Part shown: piece after piece, positions 10,507 through 11,361 of the stretch
How the letters are laid out: each line of letters begins with the position of its first letter
Position numbering within the stretch: the first letter of the stretch is position 1
IMG/VR virus record: IMGVR_UViG_2526164665_000018
Source: a virus
Lineage: Duplodnaviria; Heunggongvirae; Uroviricota; Caudoviricetes
Direction: 5' to 3' (one strand)
DNA length: 12,481 nt
Position numbers and translations under genes: made by a program
Notes under the pieces: model-generated
The model's database searches: none
What the model was told of the DNA's origin: nothing
The model's input: the letters and a program-made list of their open reading frames with translations, nothing else

Positions 10507-10603
10507 ATGCCCTGAGTTGTACTTGTACGGTAAACATGCTGGCTGCTATGTAATAGAGTTTTTTTAGCCTGTAACCTCTTGACGGCATTGAATTGCTTTT
10601 GTT

Positions 10604-10879
10604 ATGAGTTGTAAGCCAATGTTATCATCTTGTATTGGGGTGGTTATGAAGGATGGTGCGCTGCTCAGGAGTTCTTCACTTTTTATTGCCTACATGGGAT
10701 GCCTTGGATGGGGGAGTGCTTATTTCTATGGATGGGGTACTTCTTTTTACTACGGCTTCCCATGGTGGATTGTAGGTGCAGGTGTTGATGATGTTGCCAG
10801 AAGTTTATTTTTGCAGTTATCGTCATTGCTATATTTCTTATCGGTTGGGGTATTGGTGTTGTATTCTTTTTCGCAGTGA
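10604..10879 (+). CDS. Hypothetical small integral membrane protein (aromatic/Gly-rich, about 2 transmembrane segments); start may be ATG 10646
   Basis: 91-aa ORF in markedly AT-rich DNA, where a long open frame is unlikely by chance. Hydrophobic. Its stop overlaps the next ORF start (GTGA). Confidence 0.5.
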   Translation: MSCKPMLSSCIGVVMKDGALLRSSSLFIAYMGCLGWGSAYFYGWGTSFYYGFPWWIVGAGVDDVARSLFLQLSSLLYFLSVGVLVLYSFSQ

Positions 10880-11361
10880 AAAGAAAACATTCTATGCAAG
10901 AGCTAAATGTATTTCGCCTTTATTTTGCTGTGGAATTATTGTTTGTGCCGGCAATTATTGAGTTTTCTATATTGAGACAGAAGATTCAGGTACCTCTTTT
11001 GCTACTGTCAGCAGCGATTGCGCTGGCGGTTACAATTTCGATAAGATCTTATGGGCGATTTTTATCGGTATCATGCTTCTATGATAAGCCATTTATAAAA
11101 AAACATTTTTTTGAGATTGTGATGATTGCTTTTGTGGCATATTTTTGGCTTTTTTCATTTCTGACAGGATATTACAAACCACAGTTTAAGAAAGAATATG
11201 AAATGATTAATTATAATGATGGTTGGTATTATGTTCTTGCTCGTTATGATAATTGTCTGGTTTTGTCTACTTCTTTCAATGCAGGTAGTAAAAGGTTTGT
11301 CATTTATCAATCAGCACAAGATAAGAATCTTCAGGTTGATATTGTAAGGACCAGAATTTAA
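10876..11361 (+). CDS. Hypothetical membrane protein (161 aa; N-terminal transmembrane helices, C-terminal soluble segment); start GTG 10876 or ATG 10894
   Basis: 161-codon ORF in AT-rich DNA, translationally coupled to the upstream ORF. No family recognised. Confidence 0.55.
   Translation: MKRKHSMQELNVFRLYFAVELLFVPAIIEFSILRQKIQVPLLLLSAAIALAVTISIRSYGRFLSVSCFYDKPFIKKHFFEIVMIAFVAYFWLFSFLTGYYKPQFKKEYEMINYNDGWYYVLARYDNCLVLSTSFNAGSKRFVIYQSAQDKNLQVDIVRTRI

Follow-up and report, generated by a model that had tools for sequence, protein, structure and literature searches.

Lambdoid phages are known to carry cargo genes such as stx, LT-II and cdt in the slot between the late antiterminator gene Q and the lysis genes. 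Many Stx phages carry tRNA genes in the corresponding slot. The locus analyzed here occupies the same slot in a lambdoid, defective prophage of EHEC/EPEC-type E. coli, available as a stretch of 12,481 nucleotides (virus record IMGVR_UViG_2526164665_000018; hereafter "the window"). Like the stx, LT-II and cdt cargo, it is characterized by AT-rich, foreign composition and by predicted Q-dependent late transcription; unlike this cargo, it encodes a membrane protein rather than a secreted toxin. No tRNA genes were found in the slot between Q and nanS-p in the window.

Phage 434 carries the same gene, i.e., CPT_434_68, annotated as "putative membrane protein" (UMO75332.1; WP_001302581.1), whose product is 100% identical to that of the window once a single missing T is restored in the latter. 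The surrounding module is also shared and comprises LpxR, YlcG, a Q82-like Q, a terminator, the gene itself, TciB/DUF3927, a small ORF, a SASA esterase and a holin. Unlike phage 434, the window copy contains a run of five rather than six T bases (T5 versus T6), and hence is read as two ORFs, and the prophage in the window shows IS insertions and other frameshifts.

More distant homologs are present in Moraxella, where the family profile recovers loci in M. bovis, M. lacunata, M. equi and M. oblonga. In the first three of these species the homolog is located between two pilin gene segments and adjoins the piv recombinase gene; we take it to be the original tfpB of the Piv-invertible pilin region and the namesake of the Pfam family PF27470 (TfpB). 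The M. bovis and M. lacunata proteins are homologous to the window protein over their full length (26-29% identity; tblastn values from 1e-13 for M. bovis to 7e-11), sharing the motif AYxYGWG...YGYPWW...ARSL as well as a C-terminal YY(I/V)L...L beta domain. Their genomic setting differs, as the Moraxella gene belongs to the invertible pilin region while the window gene is part of the late operon of a lambdoid prophage and has no pilin gene nearby; a search for a pilin-motif ORF in the window found none. A literature search for the Moraxella tfpB gene retrieved nothing, and searches on phage 434 in connection with LpxR and on TciB/DUF3927 gave nothing relevant. The name TfpB is also borne by an Acinetobacter ATPase in the literature.

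In Salmonella, a homolog of 238 aa (46-48% identity over the full length) is encoded in the islet sseJ-STM1630-steB; the gene between sseJ and steB is presumably STM1630, as judged from gene order and locus numbering. This gene resembles the window gene in its high AT content, its horizontal acquisition and its position beside virulence genes, and differs from it in being a macrophage-induced chromosomal orphan with its own promoter and no surrounding prophage. The neighboring steB is STM1629, and STM1630 was hypermotile in a deletion screen (PMC4219756) and was re-examined in a follow-up study (PMC4534456). STM1630 was also reported to be co-regulated with a virulence regulon (PMC2639726) and to be induced in macrophages, with its promoter inactivated in ST313, while its deletion caused no defect in intramacrophage replication (bioRxiv 10.1101/689075).

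Organization of the late-operon slot

The window contains, in order, an inverted pair of IS3-family elements, the O/P replication genes, the nin region, a lipid A deacylase gene of the LpxR type on the minus strand (positions 8309-9271; PF09982 at 4.5e-40) and a Q82-type late antiterminator gene Q on the plus strand (9746-10435; PF06323 at 1e-91; PHROG 304), which is named Q in related annotations. The region of the ORF pair follows 3' of Q, and after it come a gene for DUF3927 and the first part of a nanS-p-like esterase gene. From Q onward the order in the slot is Q82-type Q, pR'-like promoter, tR'-like terminator, tfpB, DUF3927, a small RNA (sRNA) candidate and nanS-p, all on the plus strand. 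The pR'-like sigma-70 promoter (TTGCAA-17-TATACT; 10419-10447), recognized by consensus match only, overlaps the 3' end of Q, a position that fits a lambdoid late promoter. It is followed by a tR'-like intrinsic terminator (10481-10507) with a 9-pair stem (hairpin 10481-10502) and a T run, which is one base shorter in the window than in E. coli O26:H11 strain 11368; a terminator is also marked at this place in the phage 434 annotation.

Downstream of the tfpB-family gene (10646-11361), and within the same cargo block, lies a gene for a DUF3927/TciB-like small membrane protein (11447-11605; PF13064 at 3e-14; PHROG 1470). The adjacent STnc100/PasD-like sRNA candidate (11616-11820) ends at a terminator (11791-11809) and matches Rfam family RF02076 over its full length with E = 7e-7 and a score of 41.4 bits, as compared to a gathering score of 47; linkage of PasD/STnc100 sRNAs to Q and LpxR has been reported. 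The nanS-p-like gene (SASA/DUF6645) starts at 11904 and runs to the end of the window at 12481; it is frameshifted in the window and in the reference genome alike.

This arrangement agrees with the preliminary description of the window, which had placed the two ORFs downstream of the pR'-like promoter and tR'-like terminator and upstream of the nanS-p-like gene, in a slot equivalent to that of stx. Promoter and terminator indeed lie between Q and the ORFs, and in related prophages the homolog sits between a Q-proximal methylase and nanS-p, which is the interval taken by stx in Stx phages. The location of the gene between Q/pR'/tR' and nanS-p plus the lysis genes, on the same strand and with foreign composition, is that of a late-operon moron, and divergent homologs directly follow Q genes of three families (PF06323, PF06530 and DUF1133-type). 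We propose that tfpB would be transcribed with the late operon, from pR' past tR' under Q82-type antitermination, and that in lysogens it may also be transcribed from a promoter of its own, like the presumed Salmonella ortholog STM1630.

The two open reading frames and the T run at 10808-10812

As read, the region contains two ORFs on the plus strand, ORF1 (10604-10879; 91 aa) and ORF2 (10876-11361; 161 aa), which overlap by the sequence GTGA. The preliminary description had interpreted them as a translationally coupled cassette of two genes for hydrophobic membrane proteins that could be assigned to no family, and had mentioned a single membrane protein split by a frameshift as a fallback. 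Re-reading of the plus strand reproduced the coordinates, sizes and overlap of the ORFs as well as the hydrophobicity of their products. The AT-richness noted earlier was also reproduced (36.3% GC in the ORF segment as compared to 46.9% in the whole window), and ORFs of such length are indeed improbable by chance, as only 4 of 10,000 shuffles of the segment contained a stop-free run of 161 or more codons. The two-gene interpretation itself did not hold, and the fallback proved to be correct.

A megablast search with the region yielded matches in 706 of 5,426 complete E. coli genomes, and the matching records annotate a single hypothetical protein in place of the two ORFs. When the window was aligned to E. 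coli O26:H11 11368, the sole difference within the gene was one missing T at 10808-10812, where the window has T5 and strain 11368 has T6, as do nearly all other copies. Restoring this T gives a single ORF of 247 aa that is identical to WP_001302581.1 and to CPT_434_68. The profile of PHROG 1521 matched ORF1 with its positions 1-60 (2.6e-23) and ORF2 with its positions 62-222 of 222 (4.5e-109). ORF1 covers the N-terminal 55 native residues of TfpB, counted from the methionine at 10646 to the frameshift after codon 55, followed by 22 out-of-frame residues that end at the TGA at 10877-10879 and are absent from all homologs, while ORF2 represents the last 161 residues of the protein. The GTG at 10876 corresponds to an internal Val codon of the intact protein (...FFFAVKRKH...), and no Shine-Dalgarno sequence was found upstream of it. 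The start annotated in RefSeq and in the phage 434 record is the ATG at 10619 (247 aa). Most homologs are 236-238 aa long and begin at the equivalent of the tenth residue of this product; the conserved start is, judging from this comparison, probably M10 at the ATG at 10646, which would give a protein of 238 aa.

To assess how frequent the T5 allele is, a 61-mer probe spanning the T run was compared to the 682 complete E. coli genomes carrying the region. Only one genome matched exactly, and its copy of the gene is labeled "frameshifted" by PGAP. The other 681 were one position off the probe; each of the matches listed extends over 62 bases, which is consistent with T6, and direct reading of two genomes showed T6. 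Similarly, in a collection of 15 billion proteins the exact split products are encoded on 1-4 contigs, as compared to 1000 contigs or more that encode the intact protein. The intact identical gene is common to phage 434 and to approx. 680 complete E. coli genomes.

Overall, these data indicate that positions 10646-11361 very probably represent one TfpB-family gene, located in the late-operon cargo slot and split by a T6 to T5 contraction. The apparent translational coupling is an artifact, as the frameshift splits one gene. The window allele, if translated, yields a truncated product of 77-91 aa only, ORF2 being devoid of start signals, and the gene as read would be non-functional. Two separate, coupled genes of 91 and 161 codons are an extremely improbable interpretation: a GTGA overlap could support coupling and both halves are gene-called in a few assemblies, but 681 of the 682 genomes and phage 434 have a single ORF, the family profile is continuous over the junction, the homologs in Enterobacteriaceae, Pasteurellaceae, Neisseriaceae and Moraxella are all single proteins of 230-260 aa, and the ORF1 tail and the ORF2 start codon, as described above, are not those expected of two ORFs that are conserved independently and have separate starts. 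A programmed frameshift at the T run, or slippage during its transcription, was also considered and rejected, as a run of five or six T bases is short and nearly all copies carry the in-frame allele. Phase variation was likewise rejected, T6 being below the usual length of contingency loci and the T5 allele occurring at a frequency of approx. 1 in 682.

The T5 run may have arisen by an assembly or sequencing error or by a real mutation. Over 8 kb, the window differs from O26:H11 11368 by 6 single-base indels and no substitutions; 4 of the 6 indels are contractions of homopolymers (A7, T8, T8 and T6), two of the four being intergenic. As all differences are single-base indels and four of them homopolymer contractions, an assembly or homopolymer error is likelier than a real, private pseudogenization. 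The recent inactivation of a genuine gene within a decaying prophage retains a considerable probability: IS3-family elements have inserted twice in this clearly defective prophage, its nanS-p and one of its replication genes are frameshifted, and finished genomes show these insertions and frameshifts too. In addition, one finished genome (PNUSAE008512) has the T5 allele within another prophage background, which suggests that the run can either slip genuinely or be miscalled repeatedly. On the other hand, the T5 allele is very rare, and the complete absence of substitutions together with the pattern of indels is typical of errors of sequencing chemistry and not of mutation. The case illustrates how one homopolymer miscall in AT-rich DNA can produce an apparent coupled two-gene cassette; three more such contractions, at 8314, 9286 and 10499, are present in the window.

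Family assignment, distribution and predicted architecture

The family that the preliminary description was unable to name is PHROG 1521, which spans both halves of the gene, and the label PF27470 (TfpB) is precomputed for an intact protein that differs by 1 residue from the repaired product as well as for 104 of 104 word-indexed homologs. Scans of the two halves and of the repaired protein against Pfam (a release older than PF27470), NCBIfam and PADLOC revealed sub-threshold noise only; the empty hmmscan of the intact protein is explained by PF27470 being newer than the Pfam copy used. The ORFs are remnants of a longer gene of a family that is named but functionally uncharacterized, and the gene is already catalogued as PF27470, PHROG 1521 and phage 434 gp68, with no sign of a novel or unusual type.

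When 1.84 billion representatives were searched exhaustively with a profile, only 72 proteins were retrieved, indicating that the family is narrow. In Enterobacteriaceae it is found in Escherichia, Shigella, Salmonella, Citrobacter, Cronobacter, Klebsiella, Enterobacter and Yersinia, and beyond this group in Pasteurellaceae, Neisseriaceae and Moraxella. Comparisons with the E. albertii and Escherichia sp. copies, both unsaturated, gave dN/dS values of 0.057 and 0.084; tfpB is a real coding gene under strong purifying selection.

An AlphaFold2 model obtained with an alignment of 47 sequences (pLDDT 80, pTM 0.74) shows five long helices followed by five strands, which form an all-beta C-terminal domain of approx. 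55 residues. When only the 31 enterobacterial sequences were used the pLDDT was 58, and it rose to 80 when relatives from Pasteurellaceae and Neisseriaceae were added. The numbers of Lys and Arg residues in successive loops are 1/0/3/1/4, which, by the positive-inside rule, are compatible with an N-in, C-out topology. Based on the model, we infer that the intact product would be an inner-membrane protein with five transmembrane (TM) helices and a cytoplasmic N-terminus, the C-terminal beta domain probably being periplasmic. The ORFs as read in the window do not show the family architecture, i.e., an intact ORF of approx. 236-261 aa whose product combines five TM helices with a beta domain at its C-terminus; this architecture appears only once the missing T is restored.

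Conserved stretches include the aromatic and Gly-rich motif AYxYGWGxSxYYGFPWW at the end of helix 1 and in the next loop, ARSL at the start of helix 2, and YKPQFKKEY and WYYVLAR where the beta domain begins. Near-invariant positions across the family are occupied by Ala, Tyr, Gly, Pro and Phe, and no conserved set of Asp/His/Ser/Cys-type residues was found across the family. As no catalytic-type residues are conserved, a role in binding or scaffolding, rather than as an enzyme, is suggested. A sequence search of the PDB with the family profile gave 0 matches, and a Foldseek search with the model against the PDB and BFVD found no relative. According to the mechanism that we propose, TfpB would insert in the inner membrane with its beta domain in the periplasm and would act through binding an envelope partner.

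Genomic contexts and candidate roles of the intact protein

Outside intact prophages, tfpB is found in a variety of contexts. It adjoins eltAB on ETEC plasmids, sseJ in every Salmonella subspecies sampled, and iroBC and a bor homolog in ExPEC-type chromosomes, and it is present on Shigella pINV (106 Shigella plasmids). In Pasteurellaceae it is an orphan at various loci, including positions beside cdtA/C genes and beside an HlyB/D-type exporter (T1SS). Only 3 of 50,697 phage records carry the gene. The intact gene represents a widespread, strongly conserved orphan membrane protein that rides virulence-associated mobile DNA, in settings that include phage 434, the slot of EHEC prophages that corresponds to that of stx, the LT plasmids of ETEC, pINV of Shigella, the sseJ islet of Salmonella and the iro/bor island of ExPEC.

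LpxR is a recurring neighbor, either directly adjoining or close by, and occurs in three arrangements, i.e., LpxR on the minus strand with Q and tfpB further along on the plus strand (the window and phage 434), tfpB on the plus strand convergent with LpxR and accompanied by a PmrD-like gene, and LpxR divergent from plus-strand tfpB (C. rodentium). Divergence over the three arrangements is similar for the two proteins (66-68% identity for TfpB and 70-75% for LpxR), and the linkage is limited to 3 of approx. 9 enterobacterial context types. EHEC lpxR has been described as a member of the Ler regulon (PMC9263587).

Based on the neighboring genes (LpxR, PmrD-like, Bor, SseJ and toxin genes), our best explanation, put forward tentatively, is that intact TfpB may be cargo for lysogenic conversion, changing the envelope or surface of the cell while it associates with a host. 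The absence of an intramacrophage phenotype of the Salmonella deletion and the restriction of the LpxR linkage to a minority of contexts count against this explanation.

As a polytopic inner-membrane protein that is borne by a prophage and occupies a moron slot, TfpB could instead serve superinfection exclusion or another anti-phage function, for example by blocking DNA entry, a surface receptor or a pilus. The location of the Moraxella homolog inside a type IV pilin locus fits such a role, as pili are phage receptors, and the adjoining DUF3927 protein is labeled TciB-like "resistance to colicin" in PHROGs. This function nevertheless seems unlikely: 0 families of the PADLOC defense models were matched at E<=1, the gene lies behind the late terminator so that expression in lysogens is not obvious, and few phage records carry it (see above). 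Moreover, it has become a fixed chromosomal orphan next to effector or toxin genes in Salmonella, C. rodentium and Pasteurellaceae, with no prophage left, and it is also carried by virulence plasmids without a remaining prophage.

A more specific idea, which we consider less likely still, is that TfpB could be a dedicated envelope partner of acquired cargo that remodels lipid A or the surface, for instance an adaptor in the inner membrane that cooperates with LpxR, the deacylase of the outer membrane, and with PmrD-like connectors to modify lipid A or surface structures while the cell associates with a host; the Moraxella copy would then represent a second use. The idea derives from the persistence of the tfpB-lpxR linkage in three arrangements while both proteins diverged to approx. 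66-75% identity. The association of the family with virulence cargo and LpxR is where its remaining interest lies, and with this distribution and the recurring LpxR neighborhood tfpB is reasonably well suited to a directed knockout. A role other than envelope cargo, exclusion or pilus accessory accounts for the remainder of the probability.

A function as a type IV pilus accessory factor, similar to TfpY/FimB and acting on the type IV pili of E. coli, is the most doubtful of the named roles. The Moraxella namesake is located between pilin genes and, in one inversion state, is co-oriented with the expressed pilin, and TfpY-like proteins are likewise TM proteins with periplasmic C-terminal domains (PMC11841053). 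However, TfpB is predicted to have five TM helices and a beta domain of approx. 55 residues, as compared to three TM helices and a larger domain of mixed alpha/beta structure in TfpY-like proteins. No pilin gene was found near any of the tfpB copies examined in Enterobacteriaceae, Pasteurellaceae or Neisseriaceae, so that linkage to a type IV pilin gene is evidently no family-wide feature, and M. lacunata carries a truncated tfpB copy (195 aa as compared to 261 aa).

Kinship with TfpY/FimB was rejected on the basis of architecture, the published description setting these proteins apart from TfpB (PMC11841053); the window gene shows neither three TM helices with a mixed periplasmic domain nor a position next to a major pilin gene. 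The paper on the TfpY/FimB-like accessory proteins makes no mention of TfpB (PMC11841053). TfpY/TfpZ/FimB-like proteins are likewise small and polytopic, reside in the inner membrane with their C-terminal domain in the periplasm and contain no recognizable enzymatic domain, their genes adjoining that of the major pilin (Qaderi et al. 2025, PMC11841053); they are treated here as an analogy for TfpB and not as members of the same family.

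Single-base differences from E. coli O26:H11 11368

Over 8 kb aligned between the window and the genome of E. coli O26:H11 11368, no substitutions were observed, and all differences were single-base indels (window positions 8314, 9286, 10499, 10807/10808-10812, 12463 and 12477). Four of these indels represent shortened homopolymeric runs in the window (i.e., one A7, two T8 and one T6 run), while those at 12463 and 12477, close to the 3' end of the window, are one-base insertions. Because of the indel at 8314, LpxR gains a C-terminal Asn (FFF* becoming FFFN*). This overall pattern looks like homopolymer sequencing error.

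Other frameshifts and the mosaic structure of the prophage

The nanS-p-like esterase gene (11904-12481, + strand; DUF1737/SASA/DUF6645) is frameshifted after approx. 108 codons; as the same frameshift is annotated in both O26 11368 and strain 6629, it is real and not an artefact of the window. Similarly, the gene for replication protein O (1602-2473, +) is present as two overlapping ORFs (1602-2159 and 2099-2473) and is also labelled "frameshifted" in one finished genome, which indicates that the prophage is genuinely replication-defective.

Two identical, inverted IS3-family (IS629-like) copies (46-1259, +, and 4909-6122, -) flank the segment carrying cII, O, P, ren and ninB/E. In related genomes, sieB is truncated and directly adjoins the left copy; a nin-region ORF is interrupted by the right one. 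With this arrangement, inversion of the 3.6-kb segment between the two copies could occur. A remnant of a lambda-type Q gene, consisting of the N-terminal 24 codons (8098-8169, +), is located 5' of the block formed by LpxR, YlcG and the Q82-type Q. This remnant marks a mosaic junction at which the original Q was replaced by a foreign module of late-control and cargo genes. The same region is named "434B nonhomology" in the phage 434 record.

Linkage with lpxR and a candidate sRNA

In the window, lpxR (8309-9271, -) is paired with the tfpB-family gene (10646-11361, +). Considering the window and five homologue loci (L003 and L052-L055), lpxR neighbours the tfpB-family gene in three different arrangements (i.e., with Q between the two genes, convergent or divergent), and the divergence of the tfpB-family genes and of lpxR is similar across linked loci. 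At L055, lpxR-like sequence was detected by tblastn, though no lpxR gene is called; L053 and L055 also carry a PmrD-like gene within the tfpB-family block. The linkage may represent a functional module or else a common cargo history.

Located 3' of the tfpB-family gene is an STnc100-like sRNA candidate (11616-11820, +), a full-length but sub-threshold match to RF02076 (41.4 bits, below the gathering score of 47; E = 7e-7) with a strong terminator (11791-11809) at its 3' end. In phage 434, this DNA is annotated as a 62-aa "membrane protein" ORF. A 2026 preprint linked STnc100 to the prophage sRNA PasD and described Q and LpxR as conserved neighbours of PasD.

Other genomic settings of the tfpB family

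Loci for toxins or effectors, namely eltAB, cdtA/C, sseJ and an HlyB/D-type exporter, were repeatedly found within 1-2 kb of tfpB-family genes on ETEC plasmids (L010-L013) and in Glaesserella parasuis (L023), Mesocricetibacter (L018) and Salmonella (L002); this proximity probably reflects shared descent from phage cargo slots. In Aggregatibacter actinomycetemcomitans, two family copies can be present in one genome (L022 and L024 in DSM 8324; L026 and L036 in HK_961). Copies in this species (L021, L022, L024, L026 and L036) occupy unrelated chromosomal sites flanked by housekeeping genes, and neither phage nor pilin genes are found in their vicinity.

In Moraxella, the tfpB ORF encodes 195 aa in M. 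lacunata (L016/L017, 5001-5588) as compared to 261 aa in M. bovis (L015, 491-1276). The two M. lacunata loci represent both inversion states of the pilin region, on separate assembled contigs, and a complete pilin gene followed by tfpB is found in only one of these states.
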